From Elusimicrobiota bacterium (GTDB taxonomy: Bacteria > Elusimicrobiota > Elusimicrobia > Elusimicrobiales > UBA9959), in contig JAJUJA010000002.1 in assembly GCA_029267355.1 (NCBI GenBank), forward strand, positions 65,386-129,385: a stretch of 64,000 nucleotides of DNA, read 5' to 3'. Under the pieces are notes generated by a model. That model was not told the DNA's origin, made no database searches, and saw nothing but the letters and a program-made list of their open reading frames with translations. Each line of letters opens with the position of its first letter. Positions within the stretch are counted from its first letter, which is position 1. A program made the position numbers and the translations under genes. Shown piece by piece: positions 1-20,964 of the stretch.

Positions 1-16
1 TAAAGAAGTTGTTCTC

Positions 17-847
17 ATGAGAAAAAATTTGATGGAAGTAGAGAGACTTTCCAAAAGAGTATTAAAAATCCCATTCGCTGCAGTATTTATTTGTGAAAAC
101 CCGGAAGGTAATAAAATATTACGTGAACTAGAGCCGCCGGAACACAATAAATGGGACAAAGACCGCAGGCCGGATGGCTCTCAGATTATAAAGAACATGG
201 ATGATTGGATAAAAGAAAAATTAAAAGAACTAAGAGAAAACCCCGGCGGCCGAGAAATTGAACTGGCCAGTTTAAGTAAATATCTGCCGGGAGGGTTAAA
301 ATCAAAAACTGGGCATATAAACCCGGAAACTGGAGATAAACAAAAAAAAGGCGATATAGATACAGGGGGAAATATTAAAGGATCATATGAAGAAAAACCA
401 AAAGCGCTTAATTTTGACGGCTCGGCCGAAGCTCCGATTATATACATTCCGGCAATAGAAGAAAGCGGAGATGAGCCTGGCGGGACGGGTTCAGGGAATG
501 CCGGGGGAGGAGGCAGCGGAAAGAGAGGTAATAGAGGGAAAAGAAACAAAAAGCATCCTGACTATAAGTTTAGTTTTAGGTGGATACCATTGAAGAGTAA
601 CGAAGCGATGCTAATTATCCATCCTCACCAAAAAATTAATACCCCTGTTGATGCCTATTTGGCAGCTGCCGGAGAAGATGAGGTTTACAAGCTTAACATA
701 TTAAGTGCAAGATATTCTGACGATAAGCCGGCAGCATTTTCTGGAAGTGCTATTAAACAGATACCACTAGAAGAAAACAAACCATGCAGAATCATCATAG
801 AAATTTCAGGATCAGCACATATTGCTGTAGGTGTGAAACTTATATGA
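17..847 (+). CDS. Hypothetical protein, possibly the C-terminal part of a larger protein that starts upstream of the window
   Basis: The reading frame has no stop between nt 2 and the ATG at 17, so the gene may be 5'-truncated by the window edge. Stop TGA 845-847 overlaps the next gene's ATG (ATGA). It contains a Gly/Lys/Arg-rich low-complexity linker (GGTGSGNAGGGGSGKRGNRGKRNKK). I recognise no family. Confidence 0.5.
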   Translation: MRKNLMEVERLSKRVLKIPFAAVFICENPEGNKILRELEPPEHNKWDKDRRPDGSQIIKNMDDWIKEKLKELRENPGGREIELASLSKYLPGGLKSKTGHINPETGDKQKKGDIDTGGNIKGSYEEKPKALNFDGSAEAPIIYIPAIEESGDEPGGTGSGNAGGGGSGKRGNRGKRNKKHPDYKFSFRWIPLKSNEAMLIIHPHQKINTPVDAYLAAAGEDEVYKLNILSARYSDDKPAAFSGSAIKQIPLEENKPCRIIIEISGSAHIAVGVKLI

Positions 848-1644
848 TTCGAAATAATTTGAAATCTTACCCATTACCGGTTCTTGGCAATGCAGATGAC
901 TACAATGAACCCTTCATAGTAGAAGGTGATTTTCATTTAGCTGGAGAAAAAATAAATATCAGATTGAGGCATTCCATATCTAATAAAGGAATTATAAAAC
1001 TTATTCAGGAAAAAAAGGCGGTATTTGGAAGTCAAATTGAATGCAAGGGGACTTTTTTTAGAAAAATATATACTGGGAACGAAATAACACTGAAAAGTTC
1101 GAGCCTGAAAGATCGTGTTGCTGTTACTCCTTATGTAATAGCCGTGGAAACGATTCGGGAGTTTACTCCGACAAATGTAAATAATGACTATATAGGAGTA
1201 AAATTTAATGTAAACCCAGGAGAATACCTGGCAATCGGCAAAACAGCTTATTTTTCCGCGGACAAAGATTTTGATGTTTCCGAAACTAATATTGGTTCCA
1301 TTATGACGATAAAACCTTCTGAAGACAGCGAGTATTATTCTGCCATTTTTGACAGCGATATAATCGAAATTATGGTTCCAAAGTCAGACATTGAATCATT
1401 GGAAGCTCTTGCATTAAACCCAAAAACAGAAGAAATAATACATGCAATGATTGTACTTCCAGTATTAACGGAGGCTATCAGGAAGTTAAAAAAAACCGAT
1501 TATGACGGAAACAAATGGTTCAATGTCCTTTCTGAAATCACAAATAAAAGAAATATTGACATTAATGAGCCATTTAATGCAGCTCAGCAGTTACTTGATA
1601 AGCCTATAAGCCGCGGTTTAAACTCCTGCACGGAAGATGATTAA
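844..1644 (+). CDS. Hypothetical protein (266 aa), translationally coupled to the upstream ORF
   Basis: ATG at 844 is in frame within the 784..1644 track ORF and forms an ATGA overlap with the upstream stop. AGGTG lies about 14 nt upstream. The protein starts MIRNNLKSYPLPVLGNADDY. I recognise no catalytic motif or family. Confidence 0.55.
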   Translation: MIRNNLKSYPLPVLGNADDYNEPFIVEGDFHLAGEKINIRLRHSISNKGIIKLIQEKKAVFGSQIECKGTFFRKIYTGNEITLKSSSLKDRVAVTPYVIAVETIREFTPTNVNNDYIGVKFNVNPGEYLAIGKTAYFSADKDFDVSETNIGSIMTIKPSEDSEYYSAIFDSDIIEIMVPKSDIESLEALALNPKTEEIIHAMIVLPVLTEAIRKLKKTDYDGNKWFNVLSEITNKRNIDINEPFNAAQQLLDKPISRGLNSCTEDD

Positions 1645-1659
1645 ACTCGGGGAAAATAT

Positions 1660-2457
1660 ATGCCTCAATTAAATAGAGTACTTAAAAACACCAAACTAAC
1701 TGAAATCAGAAAAGCTCTCTCAGCTCTACAAAATCTAAATTCTTATATATCTGGAGACTTCGGATTAACTGACTCAGATTTCCTCCCAGCAGAAGTTGCA
1801 TCATCAGATGAACCTCTGACTTTCGAAAATAACGAGGATAAAAATAAAGAAGATTTGTCTAATTCAATAATGCTGCATAAAAGGCTTAACAAACTTGATC
1901 CGGCGAAAGCATCCGATATCCGACTTTGGACCTATCTGGCCTACCATATAAGCCCTGATTACGTACGGAGGCGCTGGCCAATAAAATACGACAACTTAGA
2001 TTCCGAAAAAGAAGAAGTTAAAAAGGAAGAAGCTAAAAAAATTGCAACACATTGGCTATTCGGAAGCGCTACGGACCGGGCTTTAAGAAGAAATGCACTC
2101 GCCAGGTTGTGGTGGGCGGCCCATCTAACATATGAACCCTGGGAAGATCCTGAGCTGAAACAATTCAAAAAAGACGATTCTTATTTTTATACTAGTATTA
2201 TATTCAGAAATCAAGGAGTCTATTCAGACCTAATGGAAAGAGCCTTTTGCAGGGATAAAAAAATCTTGACAGTAATATTGGACCTTTTTCATGAATATCC
2301 TCAGCTTACCGAGAGAAAATACACACGTGCTTTTGTAAAGCTTGTAAACATAAATTCCGGATTCAAATCACTCGGAGCGCTCACTGTACCTCAACTAAAA
2401 GAGCTGCTGAAGGGAATAAAAGAAAAAGTATTTTCTACCCCCATTGACGAATTATAG
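1660..2457 (+). CDS. Hypothetical protein (265 aa) with Trp/Arg-rich motifs
   Basis: There is a 15-nt gap after the previous gene and a GGGGA RBS-like element. Motifs are RLWTYLAY, RRRWP, THWLFG and LARLWWAAHLTYEPWEDPE. I cannot assign a family with confidence. Confidence 0.6.
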   Translation: MPQLNRVLKNTKLTEIRKALSALQNLNSYISGDFGLTDSDFLPAEVASSDEPLTFENNEDKNKEDLSNSIMLHKRLNKLDPAKASDIRLWTYLAYHISPDYVRRRWPIKYDNLDSEKEEVKKEEAKKIATHWLFGSATDRALRRNALARLWWAAHLTYEPWEDPELKQFKKDDSYFYTSIIFRNQGVYSDLMERAFCRDKKILTVILDLFHEYPQLTERKYTRAFVKLVNINSGFKSLGALTVPQLKELLKGIKEKVFSTPIDEL

Positions 2458-2489
2458 TAACGCGCTTTTTAAATTAATATAATTGATAT

Positions 2490-2903
2490 GTGGCAGACAC
2501 AATCACAAAAAAACATAGAAGCTGGAATATGTCTAGGATTAAGAGCCGAAACACAACTCCAGAAAAAAAGATCCGCAGTCTTTTGCATAGTTTGGGCTAT
2601 AGATTCAGACTGCATAGAAAAGATCTTCCAGGGAAACCAGACATTGTTTTACCGAAATTTAAAACAGTTATTTTTATACATGGATGCTTTTGGCACAAAC
2701 ACAAAGGATGCAAAAGAGCAAACACTCCAAAGTCGAATCTGAATTATTGGATTCCGAAGCTTGCTCGGAATGTAAAAAATGACAAAAAACACATTCGCGA
2801 TTTAAGAAAAAAAGGATGGAAAACCATGGTAATATGGGAATGCACATCAAAAAATCCATCAATACTTAAATCAGTTCTCAGGAAGCTGGAAAATGGAAAA
2901 TAA
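2490..2903 (+). CDS. vsr: Very short patch repair endonuclease (Vsr, T:G mismatch nicking)
   Basis: GTG start. MADTITKKHRSWNMSRIKSRNT...PGKPDIVLPKFKTVIFIHGCFWHKH...VIWECT matches E. coli Vsr end to end as I remember it (MAD..SKNM..I..R.T / PG.PDFV / IF.HGCFWH.H / VWEC). It overlaps the downstream methyltransferase gene by 11 nt. Confidence 0.9.
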   Translation: MADTITKKHRSWNMSRIKSRNTTPEKKIRSLLHSLGYRFRLHRKDLPGKPDIVLPKFKTVIFIHGCFWHKHKGCKRANTPKSNLNYWIPKLARNVKNDKKHIRDLRKKGWKTMVIWECTSKNPSILKSVLRKLENGK

Positions 2904-3867
2904 AAATAAATATTTCAAAGTTGGAAGTCTTTATGCAGGAATAGGAGGAATATGCCGCGCTTTTATAAATGCAGGCGCAAAGGTGGTTTGGGCAAATGAG
3001 TGGGACAAATACGCCTGCATGACATATAGAGAAAACTTTTCTCATCGCCTTTACGAAGAGGATGTTGAAGATTTTATAAAAAAGGACCTAAAAGAAGCGG
3101 AAGACATAGACATTTTAACCTCAGGATTTCCATGCCAGGCCTTTTCAATTGCCGGATACAGAAAAGGGTTTAAAGATGAAAGAGGAAATCATTTTTTTAA
3201 AACTATTGAAGTTTTGAATAAAAAAAGGCCAAAGGCTTTTTTATTTGAAAATGTTAAAAATCTTAGAACTCATGATAACGGCAACACTTATAGGGTTATT
3301 GTGGATTGTATTAAACATGCTAAATACCATTTAATAACGCTGTGTTTAAATACAATGAATCACGGAAATATACCTCAAAACAGAGAAAGGATATATCTAG
3401 TCGGATTCAAAAACAAAGCAGCAGCTGATATTTTTCCTAATCTTGAAAAAAATCCAATACCTTTAACTGTTAAGATCAAAGACTTACTTAAGGAAGGCGC
3501 AGTTGACCCCAAATATTACTACAAAAATTTTGATTGCTATAATCAGCTTAAAGAACAGATCAGGTCTTCTAACACTATTTATCAATGGAGAAGAGTGTAT
3601 GTCCGGGAAAACAAAAAAAATGTTTGCCCGACACTTACAGCAAATATGGGGACAGGAGGACACAATGTTCCCCTAATAAAAGATAGAAAAGGAATAAGGA
3701 AATTAACTCCGGAAGAGTGCGCAAATTTTCAAGGACTTTTCAACTGGAAATTTCCCAATATTGCTGATAGTCATAAATACAAACAAATAGGCAACTCTGT
3801 TAGTATTCCGGTAGTAACAAGAATAGCAAAAGCTATGATTCAAACATTAGAGCAATTTAAAAAATGA
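2893..3867 (+). CDS. DNA (cytosine-5)-methyltransferase
   Basis: Canonical C5-MTase motifs are present: LYAGIGG (I), GFPCQAFSIAG (IV, catalytic Cys), ENVKNL (VI), QNRERIY (VIII) and QIGNSVSIP (X). It sits next to vsr. Confidence 0.95.
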   Translation: MENKNKYFKVGSLYAGIGGICRAFINAGAKVVWANEWDKYACMTYRENFSHRLYEEDVEDFIKKDLKEAEDIDILTSGFPCQAFSIAGYRKGFKDERGNHFFKTIEVLNKKRPKAFLFENVKNLRTHDNGNTYRVIVDCIKHAKYHLITLCLNTMNHGNIPQNRERIYLVGFKNKAAADIFPNLEKNPIPLTVKIKDLLKEGAVDPKYYYKNFDCYNQLKEQIRSSNTIYQWRRVYVRENKKNVCPTLTANMGTGGHNVPLIKDRKGIRKLTPEECANFQGLFNWKFPNIADSHKYKQIGNSVSIPVVTRIAKAMIQTLEQFKK

Positions 3868-5009
3868 ATGAAGAACAATTTTCCCCCTTCTACATCAATC
3901 AGCCAAAAGAGAACAGAGATTACTATATAAAACTGCTCCGCGGTGCAGTCCAAACCAGCATATTATACAGTGAAAACGATAAACCGTACCTTCCATATAG
4001 AGCTGCTGAAAAAATATTTTGTAAAGCTTTTAGAGCTCAGGATGTATCAAGAAAAGACATATCTGTCGACGCTATAAAAAACCAAGAAGGGATAGGAATT
4101 AAAACATTCATCACTGGCGGTAAAAATGGGAAATTCGAAAAAATAGCCGAATTTGTAGACAGAGTTAAATACCCTTTATCTGAAAACAACCCTGAAAAAT
4201 TAATAAAAGAAATTTCAGAATACAGAAATTCAAGAATTGAAGAGGTCAGAAAAGAATTTGATTTAAGAAATATTGTTTACCACTCAATAGTTAGAGCCCC
4301 AGGGAAAATGTACATTTGCGAACAGCCGTTGTCTACTATAAAAACCAACAACTTAACTCTTCAAGGTAAAAAAGGCGCAAATATATATTTTAAAGATACA
4401 TCTTCTAAGTATCTATTTAGTCTTTCTAAACATACTCTATATACACATTTCTTTTATGATTCGCCCTTTGAAGAAATTACTATAAATAAAAACATTGAAA
4501 AAGAACTTCTGAGCTGGACGATACAAGAACTCAGTTCAAAATATGAGACCAAAAAAGAACTCTTAAAAAAATATGAATATGTTTTGCTTCCTTTATACAG
4601 CACGAGACTCGGAGATGTACCTGAAAAAAGCGGCCTTAATCAGTGGAATGCAGGAGGAAGGGAAAGGAATCCAAATGAAGTATACATCCCCATACCAAGG
4701 GTTGTCCATGTAAAGAAACCCAATTTTTTCCCTCCAAAAGACCAGAAATTTATTTTACAAACAGATGACGGATATAAATTTAAAGCAAAAGTATGCCAAG
4801 ATGGATCCAAAGCACTTATGACTGATCACAACAAGGACCTGGGCGAATGGATTTTACGCAAGATTTTAAAAATTCAAGAAGGTGAAAAAGTAACTTTAGC
4901 TCATCTTCAGGCAAAAAATGCTGATACAGTTATTATTTATAAAATTTCTGAGGACACTTATCTTATAAGTCTTGATTCTTTTGGCAGCTTTGCCAAAGAA
5001 TATACATGA
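3864..5009 (+). CDS. Putative type II restriction endonuclease, partner of the C5-MTase
   Basis: ATGA overlap with the MTase stop (3864-3867), the classic position in a vsr-M-R operon. The C-terminal ~130 aa (SGLNQWNAGGRERNPNEVYIPIP...FILQTDDGYKFKAKVCQDGSKALM...LGEWILRKIL) resemble, from memory only, the B3/EcoRII-N/BfiI-C type DNA-binding pseudobarrel. I could not pin a catalytic motif in the N-terminal half. Confidence 0.55.
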   Translation: MNEEQFSPFYINQPKENRDYYIKLLRGAVQTSILYSENDKPYLPYRAAEKIFCKAFRAQDVSRKDISVDAIKNQEGIGIKTFITGGKNGKFEKIAEFVDRVKYPLSENNPEKLIKEISEYRNSRIEEVRKEFDLRNIVYHSIVRAPGKMYICEQPLSTIKTNNLTLQGKKGANIYFKDTSSKYLFSLSKHTLYTHFFYDSPFEEITINKNIEKELLSWTIQELSSKYETKKELLKKYEYVLLPLYSTRLGDVPEKSGLNQWNAGGRERNPNEVYIPIPRVVHVKKPNFFPPKDQKFILQTDDGYKFKAKVCQDGSKALMTDHNKDLGEWILRKILKIQEGEKVTLAHLQAKNADTVIIYKISEDTYLISLDSFGSFAKEYT

Positions 5010-5036
5010 TATTAATATCTCTGGGGAGGTGGTATT

Positions 5037-5468
5037 ATGGCTGGATATTCAAGAATATATTGTATGGGCGAAAAAGGAGGCTTGGGAGGGATTGACGGCA
5101 TTAATCCTATACTTTTTCAGATCCTTGTGGGGGATGCCGGCAGACAATGGTATGAGGTCCATTACTTTGATAAGCACATAAAACCTCTAGCTGGAATCAC
5201 ACGCACGATTCCGGTCCGCCCCGATGACAAAAACGCATTATTAGATGCCTGTATATTATTTTATCCTGATTATTTTTCCAAATGTCCTTCTATAAAAAAA
5301 GTTTCTTCTAACCTCTTAGAGTCATCCCATAACGGCCTTTTAGATTTCAATTTAAACAAAGAGAACATTCCTGAGTACTGGGATAAGTTGCGCAAAGAAA
5401 GCGAACCATTTTTTAAAAAATTTTATATATTAGAGGCAAAACTAAATGAATATAAAAAACAACCTTAG
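5037..5468 (+). CDS. Hypothetical small protein (143 aa), putative partner of the HEPN-GGCT protein
   Basis: A GGAGGTG RBS lies 5-11 nt upstream. The 3' end overlaps the next gene by 23 nt. It has a glycine-rich N-terminus (GEKGGLGGIDG). I recognise no family. Confidence 0.5.
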   Translation: MAGYSRIYCMGEKGGLGGIDGINPILFQILVGDAGRQWYEVHYFDKHIKPLAGITRTIPVRPDDKNALLDACILFYPDYFSKCPSIKKVSSNLLESSHNGLLDFNLNKENIPEYWDKLRKESEPFFKKFYILEAKLNEYKKQP

Positions 5469-6378
5469 CAAATGGTGGGAAACCGCCAGAGCAAATTCAA
5501 TTGCTGATGCTATTGGACATATAAATGAAGCTAAATACAAAAAGAATATTATAGAAAAGTTTTCTTCTTTATCTAAGGCAGCCAATAAATTATGGACAGA
5601 ATACAATTATCAAAACAATCTAACAAAAGGCGATACGGCTTCTTTTGAGGCGCTGCTTCGTAACACTCTCTCTTATGCCGATAAGGCCAAGATAGCAGAC
5701 TCATTAGAATTAATGAATCTGGTAAAATTAGAACCCAAAATAATGGACCATTATTGCTTAAATAAAAATCATTATAACCCGGAAAATATATCCAAAGAGC
5801 ATCAAAAAGCCGCTTCTGAAAAGCACCGGGAACTTATCAAGAAATTTAACATTTGCTTAACTGAAAAAACGGACGAGAAATTGAATCAAATTATTAAAAA
5901 ATTGGCAGACCTTCTTTTTGTGGTCCGGTCGAATATCGCGCATGGAGAAAAAACAATAAACGGACCAGATTTTAAAAAAAATTTTCGGGACAAAATGGTA
6001 TGTGAAACCGCAGTTCCGGTTATGAAATTAATTTTTGATTCGTTTTTTAACCAACCAGACAATCGTTTAGCGGTTTATGGAACCTTAAAACCTGAAGGAT
6101 CCAAACATTACAAGATTTCAAGTATAGATGGCACTTGGATTAACGCCTCTTTAACCGGACGGATATATAGTGGAGATGATAGTCTCCCATATTTCATGTG
6201 GGATTTATCAGGTGATAATATCAAAGTAAAAATAGTTGAATCTTCTAAACTCCCTGACATATGGTTATACCTGGACAATTTTGAAGGCAAATCATACAAG
6301 CGAATATGGGTTTTGGCAAATACTCTAGATAATAAATTGATTGTTGCTAACATATACGCATCGAACAAACTCCAATAA
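5446..6378 (+). CDS. HEPN-domain (Rx4H) protein fused to a gamma-glutamylcyclotransferase (AIG2/GGACT-like) domain
   Basis: The N-terminal ~200 aa are all-alpha-looking and carry R161-SNIA-H166 (VVRSNIAHGEK, nt 5926-5943), the HEPN Rx4-6H signature. The C-terminal ~100 aa carry YGTLKPEG (nt 6076-) and LDNFEG (Glu at nt 6283-6285), the GGCT-fold N-terminal motif and the catalytic-Glu motif. Confidence 0.7.
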   Translation: MNIKNNLSKWWETARANSIADAIGHINEAKYKKNIIEKFSSLSKAANKLWTEYNYQNNLTKGDTASFEALLRNTLSYADKAKIADSLELMNLVKLEPKIMDHYCLNKNHYNPENISKEHQKAASEKHRELIKKFNICLTEKTDEKLNQIIKKLADLLFVVRSNIAHGEKTINGPDFKKNFRDKMVCETAVPVMKLIFDSFFNQPDNRLAVYGTLKPEGSKHYKISSIDGTWINASLTGRIYSGDDSLPYFMWDLSGDNIKVKIVESSKLPDIWLYLDNFEGKSYKRIWVLANTLDNKLIVANIYASNKLQ

Positions 6379-6591
6379 AAATATCGGAAGGATGGGCACA
6401 AATAAAGACGTGTTTTGGTAAGTGAAAAGCTAATTATGTGCTACGCTTTTTCGGCTTATCCTGACTCATTTTGTCACAATTCACAACATATCTCATCCTA
6501 ACATTTGCTGTAAAGGGCATTAGAAGAAGACATAGACGAATCAGGTAATATAAGCGGCCTGTTCTGAGAACGGATTAATTAAGAAGCAGGT

Positions 6592-15064: not shown

Positions 15065-18000
15065 ATGTCTTGGGCTGAAAAGCCCGGAGGCGAGATGGAA
15101 TTTGAAGAAAATGTAAAACTGGATCCCCAGGGGCTGCAGGACCTTGAAACGGCGAAGCTGTCCCTGAAATGGACAGTTGAAAAGCTTAAAGAGCTGAAAG
15201 AAGAATTAGCCGTATTGAAAGAAGAGAAAATCAAGAGGGAAAACCAGATAAGAGATTTGATACTCAGAGCCGAGCAAAGCGAAGAACTTGTAAAGAAGTG
15301 GCAGACGACCGTAAAGGCCTGGGAAGAAAATGTAAGAACTCAGTCTGAAATGGAGGCGGAGCTTAAAAAGAAGCTCAGACAGCAGATATTAAACGAGGAA
15401 ATCTCGCATCTGCTTTCGGCAAGAAAAAGGCTGGAAGAAGAAATCCGTCAGCTTAAAGAACAATTGGCTCAAAGGGAAGAGGAAATAGGCAGGATAAGAT
15501 CGCAATGGGCCGAGGAGCTTGGAAAAATTTCAAAATTCAAGGACGCCGAAGCTCTCGCCCTGGTGGAGAAATACAAGGAAGAATATGAAAAAAACTCTCT
15601 GTCGCTGAAAGAAAATCTTGAAAAATTTGCCGCTGAAAGCGAAGAAAAAAGGCGCGCCGCCATAGAAGAGCTCAGATTTAATATTGAAAAGGTTTATGAG
15701 GAAAAGCTGGCAAGCCTTGAGTCCATGCTGGCGAAAGAAAGGGAAAAGAACGCCGCTCTGGCGGCTGAAGCCCACAAAAAAGCGCTTGAAAAAGCTGACG
15801 CACAGGCTGAAGATTTAAGACAGAAATATGAAAAGGAAAAAGAATTTTTAATCGAAGAAATAGAAAAAAGAAAACAGCAGGCCCAGCAAGCGGTTTCGGC
15901 CGAACTGGCGAGACTTTCTCAGGAATATCTGAAAAAAGCCGCAGAGCTTGACACCATTATAATAGCCGAAAGGGAAAAAGCCGCGCAGGAATTTGCGCAA
16001 AAAGAAAGGGAACTGGCCTTGAAGTATGAAGCCAAACTTGAAGAAGCGGAAAACAGGCATGCGGCGGCCCTTGCAGAGATGACAAGAAAGATAGAAGAAT
16101 TTGCGGCTAAACGCGAAGAAGAATATGTAAATACAAGACTTAAACTGGAAGAGAATCTTCTTGAGCTGATAAAAAAGCATGACTCTCAAACCGCGCAAAA
16201 TTTTGAGAAAGCTGCCGAAGAGATCAGGGGCAAATGGGCTCAAATGGCGGCCGAACTCGCCGGCGAAAAAACAAGGCTGCTTGCCGAAAATGACGCCCGC
16301 TGGAGCAAAGAACTGCAGAAGATCTCGCTGGAAGCGGAGCTTAAATTCCAGCAAGATCTTATTAAGGCAAGACAGGAGCTTGAAGCACAAAAAGAGCAGG
16401 ATATAGAAAAGATAAAATCGGAGCTTGAAAGACTTTACAAGGAAAAGATTGAAAGGCATAAAGCGGCGCTGGAAAACGAGTTTTCGCAAAAAGCGGCCCG
16501 GCTTCAGGAAGAAGCGGACAATCAGATAGAGAAAGCCAGACAGGAAGCGCTTAGGGAGAGAAAGCAGTATCTTGCCATAAAGGAAGACGAACTGGCCGCA
16601 GAAAAGGAAAAGCTTAGAAAAGAATTTTCCGCCTACAGAAACTCTCTGAAAGAAAAATTTGAGCATTTTGAAGACGAACTTAAGCTGAAATATGCCGAGA
16701 AAGAGGCTGCGCTTGAAGCGAAATACGCCAAAGAGACAGAAGAGAAAAAGCAGGCGCTGCAGCAGGAAAATGAAACATGGCTTAAGGCGATGAAAGCTGA
16801 GTTTGAGGAAAAAGAAAAGATCTTAACCGGCGAAAAACAGGAACTGGCCGAAAAAATCTCCCGGCTGACCGCCTCTTTTCACGAAAGACTTTCGCAAAAA
16901 GAGCTTGAAATGAGCGCCAAATATGAAAGCTGGCTTAAAGAGGCCGAAGAAAAAACGGCGCAGGCGCTTAAAAGAAAAGAGGAAATTTTAAAGAAGCAAT
17001 ATGAAAACAGGGAACTTCTTCTTGAAAGCAGGGAAAAGAAAATGCAGGAGGAGCTGGCCGAGGAGAGAAATAAATTTGAGGAAAAATTAAAGGAGCTGAA
17101 AAAAGATAACGAGCTGGTCCTTGCCGCTGAAAAAGAAAAGCTTAAGGAAGAAGTAATAACTCAGAAAGAAGCCCTGAGAGCCGCCGAAAAGGAATTGAAA
17201 GCGGCCGTTGACAGAAACGAAAAGGAAAAAATGGAATTCAAGGAAAACCTGACGGCTCAATTTGCCGTAAAGGAGCAGAACCTTTTTGATTCTCTATCAA
17301 AGGCGAAAGATGAAATGAACAGACAGGTTCTTGAAAAAAAGGAAAGCCTTGAAGCCGAATATGAGAGAAGAAAGGAAGCTCTCAGGAACAAAGAAAGGGC
17401 GCTTGAAGCTGTTTACGACGAAAAAGCGAAGAAACTTGAGGCGGAATTTTCGCAAAATAAGGCCTCGCTTGAAAAAATGATGAATTCGGAAATTTCAAAG
17501 GAGAAACTCAAGCTTGAGGAACTGTTTGAAACCAGAAAAGAAGAGCTTCAGAAGGCTCATTTTGAAAAAATGGCGCAAATGGAAGCTTCCTACTCGCAGA
17601 AACTTGCTGACATTTCGCAAAGACTGTCGGCGGAGTATGAGGCCAAACTGAAAGACCTGCAGGAAAAAATCAGGGAAGAAAAAGCGGCCTACGAAAAGGA
17701 AAAATCTCAGGAAATGGAAAAGTTTCTTGAAAACTTTTCCAGAGAAAAAGAGGAATGGGAAAAGAAAAAATTTGAAATACTGGAAAATGAAAGACTCAAT
17801 CTCCAGGCCCAGTATGAAAAGAAGGAAGCCGAATTAAACGCCTTCATCTCAAGACATAAAGAAGCTCTGCAGGATGAAAAGAACAAGCTTGAACAGGCCT
17901 ATAACGCCAGACTTAATACGCTTGAAAGGGAATATTTTCAGCATTTTGAAAAAGCCAGAAGCCAGATGGACAAACTGAGAAAGGAGTTTGAGGATGCTTT

Positions 18001-18148
18001 CAGGGAAAAGGAAAAAGAGCTTGAAGAAGAGAAAAACAAAGCCGTATCCAGAGCTCTGTCAAGGGAAAAAGAGCTTGTCGAAAAATACAAGGCCAAGGAA
18101 GAGGAGTTAGTAAAATACTGGCAGAATAAATTTAAGGAAGAGAAATAA
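15065..18148 (+). CDS. Giant E/K-rich coiled-coil protein (1027 aa)
   Basis: A continuous heptad-like E/K/L/A-rich sequence. I see no proline after roughly the first 25 residues. An L-x3-Y-E-x-K motif recurs. No enzymatic or membrane domain is visible. Confidence 0.8.
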   Translation: MSWAEKPGGEMEFEENVKLDPQGLQDLETAKLSLKWTVEKLKELKEELAVLKEEKIKRENQIRDLILRAEQSEELVKKWQTTVKAWEENVRTQSEMEAELKKKLRQQILNEEISHLLSARKRLEEEIRQLKEQLAQREEEIGRIRSQWAEELGKISKFKDAEALALVEKYKEEYEKNSLSLKENLEKFAAESEEKRRAAIEELRFNIEKVYEEKLASLESMLAKEREKNAALAAEAHKKALEKADAQAEDLRQKYEKEKEFLIEEIEKRKQQAQQAVSAELARLSQEYLKKAAELDTIIIAEREKAAQEFAQKERELALKYEAKLEEAENRHAAALAEMTRKIEEFAAKREEEYVNTRLKLEENLLELIKKHDSQTAQNFEKAAEEIRGKWAQMAAELAGEKTRLLAENDARWSKELQKISLEAELKFQQDLIKARQELEAQKEQDIEKIKSELERLYKEKIERHKAALENEFSQKAARLQEEADNQIEKARQEALRERKQYLAIKEDELAAEKEKLRKEFSAYRNSLKEKFEHFEDELKLKYAEKEAALEAKYAKETEEKKQALQQENETWLKAMKAEFEEKEKILTGEKQELAEKISRLTASFHERLSQKELEMSAKYESWLKEAEEKTAQALKRKEEILKKQYENRELLLESREKKMQEELAEERNKFEEKLKELKKDNELVLAAEKEKLKEEVITQKEALRAAEKELKAAVDRNEKEKMEFKENLTAQFAVKEQNLFDSLSKAKDEMNRQVLEKKESLEAEYERRKEALRNKERALEAVYDEKAKKLEAEFSQNKASLEKMMNSEISKEKLKLEELFETRKEELQKAHFEKMAQMEASYSQKLADISQRLSAEYEAKLKDLQEKIREEKAAYEKEKSQEMEKFLENFSREKEEWEKKKFEILENERLNLQAQYEKKEAELNAFISRHKEALQDEKNKLEQAYNARLNTLEREYFQHFEKARSQMDKLRKEFEDAFREKEKELEEEKNKAVSRALSREKELVEKYKAKEEELVKYWQNKFKEEK

Positions 18149-18150
18149 AT

Positions 18151-20964
18151 ATGGACTGGGATTTTCTGGAATACCCGCAAGTCTCGCAGGAAGAAATAGA
18201 TAATGCCAAGATAATTCTCCGCCTTTCAAGCGAGCTCAAGGAAAAGGAAGCCATGCTCGCATCCATGCGCGCAAAAATAGAGGAAGAAGCTCAAAAAGCG
18301 GCAAAAACCAAAGAACTTGAGTATGAAACCATAATGAAGCTGCGCGAGGAAAAATTTTCCAGAAAAGAGGAAGAAATAAGCAGAATTCTGTCTGAGAAGG
18401 AAAGTCAGCTGTGGAACAAATACAAGGAGCTTCTTGAACAGACAGCCGAAAGGCAAAGGCAGGAAACCGAGGCTGAAAAGGCCAGAATGGAGCAAATTCT
18501 GGCGGAAAAGGAAAAGGAACTCAACGATTACAGGGAAAAAATAACGCAGGAAAGCAGGGAGCTTTTCTCAAAGTGGCGCAAGGAAAAAGATTGGGAGACG
18601 GAAAGGGAAAAGGAAATTTTCCTCTCCCGCCTTGAAGAACTTAAGGAAGATTACAGAAATAAGCTGGAAGAAAACTCCCGCAAGATAGAGCAGATCTATG
18701 AGGCCAAGACTCAAAATCTGAGAGAAACGCTTGAAAACAGGCATAAGGCCGAGCTGGAAAAACTTAAGGACGATTTTAAGAAAGAGCTGGAAGAAAAACT
18801 TGCCGCCGAAACAGCGAAAATAGCCGGGGAATATTCCCTGAAATTCGATCAAAATTCGGCCGACTTCAAACATTACCTGTCGGAAATAAAAAACCATCTT
18901 CAAAAAGAATATGAGGAAAAACTCAAGGCGTATAAAGAGAATGAATTTCTGGAAATAAACAGGCTGAAGGAAGAATTGCAGCTTAAAAATCTGGAAATAG
19001 AAAGAATAAAGGAAGAGTTTTCGGCAGCGTCGGAAAAACTTAAAAAAGAATATGCAGCTGCCGGGGAAAGAAACAGGATTGAAAGTGAAAAAATTCAAAA
19101 AGAGTACATTTTGAAAAAGGAGCAGCTGGAAGAAGAGTTTGAAAAAAGATTTTCCGATATTGAGGAAAAAGAGAGCGAAATAAAGGAAGAGGCCGCGGCA
19201 AAAATAAAGGAACTGGAAGCCGTTTACGCAGAAAAAACGAAAATATTAAACGAAAAGGAACGCGAATTAAAGGAAAGGAAGGAATATTTTGAAAACCTTG
19301 AAAAGGAAATACAGCAGACGCTTTTCAACAAGGAAAAAGAGATAGCACTGGCCCATCAGGCCGCCGCCGAAGCGTACAAAAGCTCGCTTTTGCAGGCCTA
19401 TGAAGCCAAGGAAAAAATCCTGGAAAGAGAAAAAGAAAATCTCGCCAAAAAAGCGGCTGAGCTTGAAAAAGAGAGAAAGAGATTTATTAATGAAACAGAG
19501 AGGGCTATTGCCGAAAAGAACGCGGTTTTGCAGCTCTTAAAAAAGGAAAGGGAAGAGTTTAAAGAGAAAAAAGAGGAATTTGCAAACGAGCTTATTGAAC
19601 AGGCAAAAAACAGGGAAAAGGAGTTTGAAGCGGCTTTGAGAGAGAAATTTGAGATTGAGTTAAGAATCGAAAAGGATAAAGCTCTTGCGGAAAAGCTCAG
19701 CTGGGAAAAAATAAAGGAGAATTTCAAGGAGGAAATAGAGTCTCTCCGAAAAAGGCACGAAGCGGAAACCGAAGAAAAGAGCAGGCAGTACAAGGCTCTT
19801 GCGGAAAAAATAAGATCAGAAAAGGAACTTGAGATAAGATCCATAAAAGAGGCGTGGGAAGCGGAAAGAAGCAAAATGCTTGAATCATTTTCGCTTGAAA
19901 GGGAGAAATTGCTTGAAGAAAAAAGAAACGAACTTTCCATGCAGGCCGCAGCTTTAAGAAAAGAATTTGAAGCCGCGCGGTATGCGCTTAAAATCGACCT
20001 TGAGATCAAGCTGCAGGAAACATATGAAGATTTTGAGCAAAAGATAAGGATAAGAGAAGCCGAAGAAAAGGAGAGGATAGATTCCCTCAATGAGAAAATA
20101 AAACGGCTCAATCTTGAGCTTGAGAAAAGTCTTTCGCAAAAGAATGAGCTCAATAAAAGAATAATGGAAACTGAAGAGATATCTGCGATTCTCATGCAGG
20201 AAAAAGCGGAACTGGAAAAGGAAAAAAACGAAACGGCCCTGATGATAAAAAGATCGCTTGAAAAAGAGTTCTGGGAGAAAACAAAAAGGCTTGAAGAAAG
20301 GTATATGAACCATATTTCGCAGACCGCCCTGCACTATCAGGAAATACAAAGAGCGAAGGAAGAGGAATTTTTCTCCAAAATACAGGCTATTAAAAGCCGG
20401 TATGAACAGGAAATAAAAAGCCAGGAGGAAAGGCTTCAATCATTCTATGAACAGAAACATCAGCATTTGGCCAAAAGTCTTGAGGAAACCTACGCGCTCA
20501 GGGAGAAAAATCTTCTTTTAAGAATAAAACAGATAGAAACTTCTTATGAAAATCTTCTTAAACAAAAGGCGGAAGAAATAAACAGGGACACTCTTTTAAA
20601 TAAAAACCTTGAAGAGCTTGAGAAACAGCTCAGAGAAAAGAACAGGGAACTGTCGGAAAAAATACTGACGCTGGAAAACACGCTTGCCCTCAAGGAAAAG
20701 GAGCTTTCTGACAGATACGAAGAGAAAAGAAAAAATCTTGAACAGGAATACCATGTTAAACTTTCCCAGATAGAATCGGAAAAATCCAAGCTTAAGGCCC
20801 TGACTGAACAGGAGCAGGAGATAATCTCAAATTTAAGAAAAAGAGAAGAGCAGTTAAAGGAAACCTACAGGGAAAAAGAGGCCGCTCTTGTCAGAGAATT
20901 CAACAGCGTAAGGGAAAAACTGGAACTTGAGTATCAGAAAAAGCTTAAAGATAAAGGGATATAG
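18151..20964 (+). CDS. Giant E/K-rich coiled-coil protein (937 aa), paralogue-like partner of the upstream gene
   Basis: ATG lies 2 nt after the upstream TAA. Composition and the L-x3-Y-E-x-K periodic motif match the upstream protein. Confidence 0.8.
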   Translation: MDWDFLEYPQVSQEEIDNAKIILRLSSELKEKEAMLASMRAKIEEEAQKAAKTKELEYETIMKLREEKFSRKEEEISRILSEKESQLWNKYKELLEQTAERQRQETEAEKARMEQILAEKEKELNDYREKITQESRELFSKWRKEKDWETEREKEIFLSRLEELKEDYRNKLEENSRKIEQIYEAKTQNLRETLENRHKAELEKLKDDFKKELEEKLAAETAKIAGEYSLKFDQNSADFKHYLSEIKNHLQKEYEEKLKAYKENEFLEINRLKEELQLKNLEIERIKEEFSAASEKLKKEYAAAGERNRIESEKIQKEYILKKEQLEEEFEKRFSDIEEKESEIKEEAAAKIKELEAVYAEKTKILNEKERELKERKEYFENLEKEIQQTLFNKEKEIALAHQAAAEAYKSSLLQAYEAKEKILEREKENLAKKAAELEKERKRFINETERAIAEKNAVLQLLKKEREEFKEKKEEFANELIEQAKNREKEFEAALREKFEIELRIEKDKALAEKLSWEKIKENFKEEIESLRKRHEAETEEKSRQYKALAEKIRSEKELEIRSIKEAWEAERSKMLESFSLEREKLLEEKRNELSMQAAALRKEFEAARYALKIDLEIKLQETYEDFEQKIRIREAEEKERIDSLNEKIKRLNLELEKSLSQKNELNKRIMETEEISAILMQEKAELEKEKNETALMIKRSLEKEFWEKTKRLEERYMNHISQTALHYQEIQRAKEEEFFSKIQAIKSRYEQEIKSQEERLQSFYEQKHQHLAKSLEETYALREKNLLLRIKQIETSYENLLKQKAEEINRDTLLNKNLEELEKQLREKNRELSEKILTLENTLALKEKELSDRYEEKRKNLEQEYHVKLSQIESEKSKLKALTEQEQEIISNLRKREEQLKETYREKEAALVREFNSVREKLELEYQKKLKDKGI

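Follow-up and report, generated by a model that had tools for sequence, protein, structure and literature searches.

At the left edge of a 64,000-nucleotide stretch of an Elusimicrobiota bacterium genome (contig JAJUJA010000002.1, positions 65,386 to 129,385; hereafter the window), three co-directional open reading frames (ORFs) form a cassette, A-B-C, which by its profile matches is already catalogued as the candidate defence system PDC-M33 and is widespread in bacteria. ORF1 (nt 2-847) is the 3' part of gene A, ORF2 (nt 844-1644) is gene B and ORF3 (nt 1660-2457) is gene C, all on the forward strand; a small gene, here labelled S, precedes A in relatives. New here are the full length of protein A and its probable ATPase nature, a link to genes for Dcm-type cytosine methylases and the Vsr endonuclease, gene S itself, and examples on plasmids of cultivable bacteria. 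The position of the window cassette beside restriction-modification (R-M) genes is not chance, because its relatives almost always adjoin a DNA cytosine methylase. This link to Dcm and Vsr is strong and specific, so that the vsr and methylase genes downstream belong to the cassette's story in the window. A defence function is a reasonable hypothesis; a preliminary description of this DNA had also led with a conflict or defence role, and as a candidate role we share it. We give an even chance to a more specific reading, in which S-A-B-C would act as an ATP-dependent, methylation-coupled, restriction-like module.

Family assignment and protein features

The preliminary description regarded the three ORFs as a novel system of unrecognisable family. 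A PADLOC scan assigned all of them. ORF1 matched PDC-M33A (E 8.6e-28, profile positions 329-623 of 627), ORF2 matched PDC-M33B (E 9e-53) and ORF3 matched PDC-M33C (E 2.2e-34), in adjacent co-directional genes and in the order of the profiles, which makes the window cassette a PDC-M33 member. ORF3 also matched Pfam DUF6339 (E 2.1e-37; 129 bits, the gathering threshold being 23.2; profile positions 2-174 of 175). The system is likewise not novel, being a PADLOC candidate already, and GHKL ATPases near Dcm and Vsr have been known since 2008 from the passages of PMC2292703 that deal with such operons. Up to E 1, the PADLOC scan of ORF1-3 returned PDC-M33 profiles only; it agreed with the earlier observation that none of the three matches components of BREX, DISARM, Dnd/Dpt, Wadjet, Zorya, Druantia, Hachiman or Kiwa. 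NCBIfam gave no match for ORF1, ORF2 or ORF3, nothing above threshold was obtained from Pfam or NCBIfam for A, B or S, and profiles of A, B, C and S run with HMMER on the PDB yielded nothing meaningful. Of the profile searches proposed earlier as a check, those of PADLOC and, for ORF3, Pfam do assign families. We accepted ORF1-3 as real genes because homologues in the same order occur in dozens of unrelated genomes.

PDC systems are 145 predicted phage defence candidates, picked by "guilt-by-embedding" because they lie inside loci for BREX, DISARM or type I R-M (Payne et al. 2024 preprint, 10.1101/2024.01.29.577857). The PDC-M33 entry is a prediction with three profile names and no description, and those names are silent on methylase or Vsr linkage, on GHKL motifs and on S. 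Literature searches found no mention of DUF6339, PF19866 or PDC-M33.

ORF1 lies in frame 2 and is open from base 2 to its TGA at nt 845-847. It had been taken for the C-terminus of a larger protein, and recovery of the full ORF, suggested at that time, established this. The complete protein A of the window's own genome, P0013, was found among representative sequences; it has 630 aa, and the window-encoded part is 100% identical to its residues 350-630. The locus L001 (L numbers denote relatives' loci), from a sediment metagenome and carrying a 70%-identical cassette, independently shows a 629-aa A gene. The 281-aa ORF1 fragment matched 404 clusters (50% identity) at E<=1e-3 in a search of 1.84 billion representatives; a word-indexed homologue search with the same fragment gave one match only.

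Motifs of A were examined in an alignment of 105 full-length homologues, in which motif and residue invariance was scored. Invariant residues were E37, Q40, N41 and D44 in motif I (AREAIQNSLDA), D125, T128 and G130 in motif II (DFNTTGL), G160, G163 and G165 in motif III (GSHGIGK) and G245 in motif IV (GT). These correspond to GHKL (Bergerat) motifs I-IV in canonical order, with canonical internal spacing for I and III. HATPase_c_3 was the top Pfam family for A, though marginal (1/78 members, E 0.012, below threshold), and hhalign of the N-box against MutL gave P 0.005. Support beyond the motifs is weak, and we regard A as probably a GHKL ATPase. All four motifs fall in the N-terminal half of A, outside the window. 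The preliminary description had placed a catalytic component upstream; an enzyme-like half does lie there, but it is part of the ORF1 protein itself and no separate partner gene is needed, though most relatives have S upstream. Inside the window, in the middle region of A, E393-P-P-x-H397 (ExxxH; nt 131-145) is invariant among the 105 homologues and R356 (nt 20-22) is near-invariant. The Gly/Arg/Lys linker noted earlier was located at about nt 479-553 as a basic, Gly-rich, disordered low-complexity segment, GGTGSGNAGGGGSGKRGNRGKRNKK, and precedes a small module of some 90 aa at the C-terminus (about nt 554-844). Enzyme-like features of the cassette are confined to A, namely its predicted ATP-binding motifs and the ExxxH region.

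Proteins B (266 aa) and C (265 aa) gave contrasting models. Alignment of 25 B homologues revealed a conserved N-terminal motif, SYPxPVLGNxDD, and almost no other invariant residue. B showed no catalytic signature and no Pfam match, its PDB profile search was empty, and its AlphaFold2 (AF2) model, built from a 3-sequence alignment, had a predicted local distance difference test (pLDDT) score of 36. For C, the AF2 model reached pLDDT 77 and a predicted template modelling score (pTM) of 0.72, with an all-alpha predicted fold; the Foldseek comparison proposed earlier gave no PDB match at E<1. The aromatic, Arg-rich conserved core of C across 33 sequences comprises Y29, W90, Y101, R105, W106, R149, W151, W152, T157 and T178. 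Invariant among these homologues are Y29, W90, Y101, R105, R149-L150-W151-W152 and T178, with W106 present in 32/33, so that the Trp/Arg motifs singled out in the preliminary description are indeed conserved. No acidic or His residue is conserved in the same 33 sequences, which suggests that C is a binding subunit and not a nuclease. A metal-dependent nuclease was considered for C and rejected, as the D and H residues kept in close relatives are not conserved across the set.

An upstream scan of relatives revealed the small gene S, about 72-80 aa, directly before A in 26 loci at E<=1e-22. It was found in L004-L032, L041 and L043-L045 (for example L004:6851-7075), has the consensus RF..LAE.R.NK.L..L.LLGNLaN..NY.Y.d.dVkKIF. 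and is predicted to be helical. S has no Pfam or PDB relative and is absent from L001, the closest relative of the window cassette. The PDC-M33 A, B and C profile names seem not to cover it. A second, highly divergent triad, A'-B'-C', was seen upstream of the same Dcm gene in Prochlorococcus (L020:3-5649 and L014:462-6227), together with a second S paralogue. An A'-like protein in L036:3734-7787 and L037:2077-6073 carries an N-terminal HTH_3 domain.

Gene order and DNA methylase partners

The comparison set, drawn from many phyla, comprised 35 genome loci and 6 plasmids; the genome loci were gathered by DUF6339 pattern, independently of any methylase. Sources included bacteria of the Candidate Phyla Radiation, Alpha- and Gammaproteobacteria, Prochlorococcus, Melainabacteria, Bacteroidota, Firmicutes and Actinobacteria, among others. 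A-B-C was colinear wherever the contig permitted, and the co-occurrence of the three homologues, an earlier proposed check, was borne out by this order being kept across the relatives' loci. A start codon lies -11 to +16 nt from the upstream stop at 25/26 A-B junctions and 29/29 B-C junctions. The window agrees with the coordinates described before, with an ATGA overlap between ORF1 and ORF2 (ORF2 ATG at nt 844-846) and a spacing of 15 nt between ORF2 and ORF3.

Clustering of 339 neighbour ORFs gave two larger recurrent families only: a C5 methyltransferase, with 26 ORFs from 24 loci plus the window, and Vsr, from 14 loci plus the window. In 5 loci, ORFs of 91-101 aa immediately before A made up a third cluster, which overlaps S; the other clusters had 2-3 members. 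Distances were scored in the 22 well-flanked loci, defined by at least 3 kb on both sides. Dcm lay within 1 kb in 15/22, within 3 kb in 18/22 and within 5 kb in 20/22. The linkage to vsr, methylase and restriction genes stressed earlier is meaningful. In the two loci with Dcm 4-5 kb away, the intervening genes, assigned by size and homology, encode an AAA_5 protein and a LlaJI-type nuclease. Vsr was within 5 kb in 10/22. Otherwise the neighbourhood was mixed, with housekeeping genes, recombinases and defence genes that turn up sporadically. A recurrent nuclease or helicase partner was also sought and rejected, as neither the neighbour clustering nor Pfam and PADLOC scans gave one. Nucleases adjoining the methylase belong to unrelated families, for example NgoFVII-like (window, L001), MvaI/BcnI (L026) or LlaJI-like (L011, L031), or are undetectable. 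In both L004 and L006 the gene order is serine recombinase, Dcm, S, A, B, C, and no candidate for a nuclease was detected.

Other defence genes were observed at several of these sites. L001:1-16290 is a dense defence island with a reverse transcriptase, a SIR2/ThsA-like protein, GmrSD, MazE-PIN and a FokI cleavage domain protein. Three loci have PbeA-like proteins (up to E 1.5e-77) in the vicinity of the cassette; L009 has a mad3/mad8-like protein there, and L029 a SoFic-like one.

Sequence relationships of C and the methylase were compared as well. The nearest neighbour by C is also the nearest by Dcm in 12/21 loci (permutation mean 1.0), a concordance to which shared ancestry of close genomes contributes. 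The window methylase is nearest to the Dcm genes located directly upstream of A in L004, L005 and L006, and the window cassette is likewise nearest to these loci.

A separate search of annotated plasmids returned 25 records. The Deinococcus plasmid carries Dcm, Vsr, S, A, B, C, and that of Planococcus AlwI nuclease, Vsr, Dcm, S, A, B, C. On the Priestia and Paenarthrobacter plasmids, S-A-B-C stands beside a divergent type II nuclease and dcm. Half an HsdS and an N6 methylase precede A-B-C on the Ligilactobacillus salivarius plasmid, and in Lactococcus lactis pS127 the three genes lie between an AlwI-type R-M system with a DPPY methylase and AbiGI/GII. The partner is an N6-adenine methylase in L042 and a DPPY methylase in L040. 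Taken together, these contexts show a partnership with DNA methylases in general, in which C5 enzymes are strongly preferred. The cassette is present on plasmids of the cultivable bacteria Lactococcus lactis, Ligilactobacillus salivarius, Priestia megaterium, Planococcus and Deinococcus, examples of such sources being Planococcus lenghuensis NZ_CP019642.1 and Priestia megaterium NZ_CP117691.1; being small (four genes plus methylase), widespread (about 400 clusters at 50% identity) and found in such hosts, it makes the idea of a methylation-coupled module directly testable.

The mostly C5 partner and the frequency of Vsr also bear on DNA repair. Escherichia coli MutL, with Vsr or MutH, combines a GHKL ATPase and a restriction-fold nuclease in a methylation-directed process. 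The cassette could accordingly be a portable 5-methylcytosine repair helper, a MutL-like ATPase complex that travels with Dcm and would stimulate or replace Vsr at T:G mismatches arising from deamination at Dcm sites. The MutL-like GHKL motifs of A, a partner that is mostly a C5 methylase and the occurrence of Vsr in about half of the loci are consistent with such a role, as is the functional link between E. coli Vsr and MutL discussed in the part of PMC2292703 that treats these genes. However, about half of the Dcm-linked loci lack Vsr, and the cassette pairs also with an N6-adenine (L042) or DPPY (L040) methylase, or with none (L027). It resides on plasmids among Abi and R-M genes, and its fast-evolving, poorly conserved B and linker regions are typical of conflict genes. 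Likeness to MutL itself does not extend beyond the N-box: hhalign of A against E. coli MutL gave P 0.005 and only 17 confidently aligned columns, all of the N-box, PDB profile searches returned no MutL match, and A lacks the C-terminal dimerisation or endonuclease domain of MutL. We consider a repair helper improbable.

Proposed mechanism and competing explanations

The methylase as the only constant partner, together with the enzyme-like features of A, led us to favour a methylation-coupled, restriction-like module. Gene content, motifs, linkage and distribution, all of them observed, are the grounds for this reading, and from them we infer every mechanistic step. The neighbouring methylase would mark host DNA as self and possibly supply sequence specificity. 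A would dimerise on ATP as a DNA clamp, after the manner of MutL and MORC. B and C, as readers or adaptors, may read the DNA or how it is methylated, or bring in the methylase to serve as specificity subunit. Incoming DNA that is unmodified would then be cut by a putative nuclease site, for which the ExxxH region is the sole candidate, or be immobilised. In the window, a conventional type II nuclease and the cassette would have vsr-dcm in common.

Type I and type III R-M systems and BREX act in an ATP-dependent manner on DNA that lacks the mark of a linked methylase, and provided the working analogy for this mechanism. Their motors are of helicase or translocase type and their nuclease is known, except in BREX, whereas the ATPase of the cassette would be of GHKL type and its contact with the methylase is hypothetical. 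The Mza system, reportedly described by Gao and colleagues in 2020, is said to be a multi-gene defence built round a MutL-like GHKL ATPase; the cassette, with its probable GHKL ATPase, resembles it in this.

Closer parallels are the bacterial paraMORC proteins. GHKL/paraMORC ATPases beside Dcm and Vsr were described in 2008 (Iyer, Abhiman, Aravind, PMC2292703), and the passages of that paper on bacterial R-M operons predict that GHKL/MORC ATPases work there with DNA methylation and propose this as the root of eukaryotic MORC silencing of methylated DNA. The module that we favour is of the kind predicted there. Compared by published description, paraMORC2 in those passages resembles A in having GHKL motifs, then a middle domain in which a basic residue is conserved, and in an ExxxH present in both. 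Its Dcm and Vsr neighbours and its patchy distribution, including cyanobacteria and Gram-positives, are shared as well. On these features, A may belong to the paraMORC group. In contrast, the paraMORC operons described there mostly carry superfamily II helicases and recognisable nucleases, neither of which recurs beside the A-B-C cassette, and the paper's text on paraMORC operons makes no mention of B, C (DUF6339) or S. VcSduA (Shedu type I-D, formerly paraMORC3) is a validated anti-phage protein whose ATPase glutamate is essential (PMC12137116). It has a GHKL ATPase domain, as motifs predict for A, and this domain controls its defence function. VcSduA is a single protein with a fused PD-(D/E)xK nuclease (DUF4263), whereas the PDC-M33 cassette has three or four proteins and no recognised nuclease domain. 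Literature searches returned no methylase-coupled bacterial GHKL/MORC cassette characterised biochemically or genetically.

A bolder version of the favoured reading, which we put forward tentatively and rate as rather less probable, is that Dcm-S-A-B-C represents a distinct class of ATP-dependent R-M. In this class a MORC-like GHKL clamp would replace the helicase-type motor and couple recognition of unmethylated DNA to interference, and B, DUF6339 and S would be new folds. If true, Dcm-S-A-B-C would offer a compact bacterial model for how MORC-type ATPases came to be coupled to cytosine methylation. Under the methylation-coupled reading as such, one of the 145 PADLOC candidates would gain a mechanism and DUF6339 a function.

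Several observations weigh against the methylation-coupled reading. Motif II of A is DxNTxG and departs from DxGxG. HMMER searches of the PDB with A profiles of 22, 24 and 105 sequences gave no GHKL match, and Pfam gave none above threshold. No nuclease or other effector signature was found in A, B, C or S. Across the whole matrix, a Mantel test of C against Dcm distances was weak and not significant (rho 0.15, p 0.07). In L027 no methylase accompanies the cassette, and a weak PLD-like neighbour is all that L012 has. Although the window and L001 share 70% identity in B and 65% in C, their methylases are very different. The missing nuclease signature, L027 and this methylase swap all argue against the favoured module. 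Finally, a conventional restriction nuclease adjoins the methylase in at least 8 loci (window, L001, L026, L011, L031, L043, L044, L045), where the methylase is thus explicable without the cassette.

L027 and the exchange of methylases between window and L001, despite 65-70% identical B and C, would be expected of a defence cassette that stands alone, functionally independent of the methylase and next to it through co-mobilisation and nesting in islands. That the islands hold further defence genes (reverse transcriptase, SIR2, GmrSD, PIN and FokI-like in L001; AbiGI/GII in L040) fits this too. Co-mobilisation accounts poorly for adjacency to one enzyme family in 18-20/22 loci over many phyla, far above any other neighbour, and for co-directional Dcm-S-A-B-C units flanked by housekeeping genes, and we regard a stand-alone cassette as unlikely.

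The varied nucleases bear on a further alternative, a guard-type abortive-infection module in R-M loci, like PrrC in EcoprrI. Such a module would monitor the methylase or the R-M system, fire on a phage anti-restriction factor, and kill or arrest the cell. PDC-M33 was defined by embedding in BREX, DISARM or type I R-M, and the cassette adjoins complete R-M systems of unrelated nucleases (NgoFVII, MvaI/BcnI, Sau3AI/MutH, AlwI, LlaJI) as well as a type I M+S pair. It has no specificity domain of its own, and the nearest-neighbour concordance of C and methylase would fit a physical interaction. Nevertheless, many Dcm-S-A-B-C loci have no detectable nuclease to guard, L027 lacks any R-M neighbour, and no toxin-like effector domain was recognised. 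We think a guard function rather doubtful, and we retain the methylation-coupled module as the favoured reading.

Downstream genes and the rest of the window

Three forward-strand genes follow ORF3 co-directionally, with gaps of 32, -11 and -4 nt, and no terminator-like site was found between ORF3 and vsr. The first encodes a Vsr very-short-patch repair endonuclease (nt 2490-2903; TIGR00632 E 3e-44, Pfam Vsr E 3e-32). The second encodes a Dcm-type C5 cytosine DNA methyltransferase (nt 2893-3867; Pfam DNA_methylase E 5.7e-75, TIGR00675 E 6e-82), the translation of which shows GFPCQ and ENV motifs. The third encodes a type II restriction endonuclease with an NgoFVII-type C-terminal B3-like DNA-binding domain (nt 3864-5009; PADLOC REase_II E 2.2e-71, Pfam RE_NgoFVII_C E 3.3e-18). 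With C5 methyltransferase, nuclease and Vsr, nt 2490-5009 constitute a classical type II R-M operon.

The restriction enzyme is a variable accessory, with a homologue only in L001 among the studied loci. In the window enzyme, the NgoFVII family match is confined to the C-terminal B3-like DNA-binding domain; the L001 enzyme (L001:13016-14002) additionally carries a PLD-type RE_NgoFVII catalytic domain. The two are weakly similar (E 2.5e-11), and their catalytic domains therefore probably differ.

GC content is 0.33-0.39 over nt 1-6000, against 0.42-0.49 across most of the remaining window. Beyond the restriction enzyme, two further co-directional ORFs (nt 5037-6378) close the AT-rich island. 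The first (143 aa) had no match; the C-terminus of the second (310 aa) barely passed the Pfam GGACT/AIG2-like threshold (E 1.2e-4, 23.0 bits where 22.8 are required), and PADLOC gave no match for either. No tRNA or tmRNA gene was found in the whole window, so the right-hand island border (about nt 6400-6590) is unmarked by a tRNA.

Farther downstream, two large adjoining ORFs of 1027 and 937 aa occupy nt 15065-20964. The first 400 residues of the 1027-aa ORF are Glu/Lys/Ala-rich and coiled-coil-like. The coding strand over this region is strongly purine-rich (GC skew 0.16-0.31, AT skew 0.35-0.44), which a Glu/Lys/Ala-rich composition would account for.

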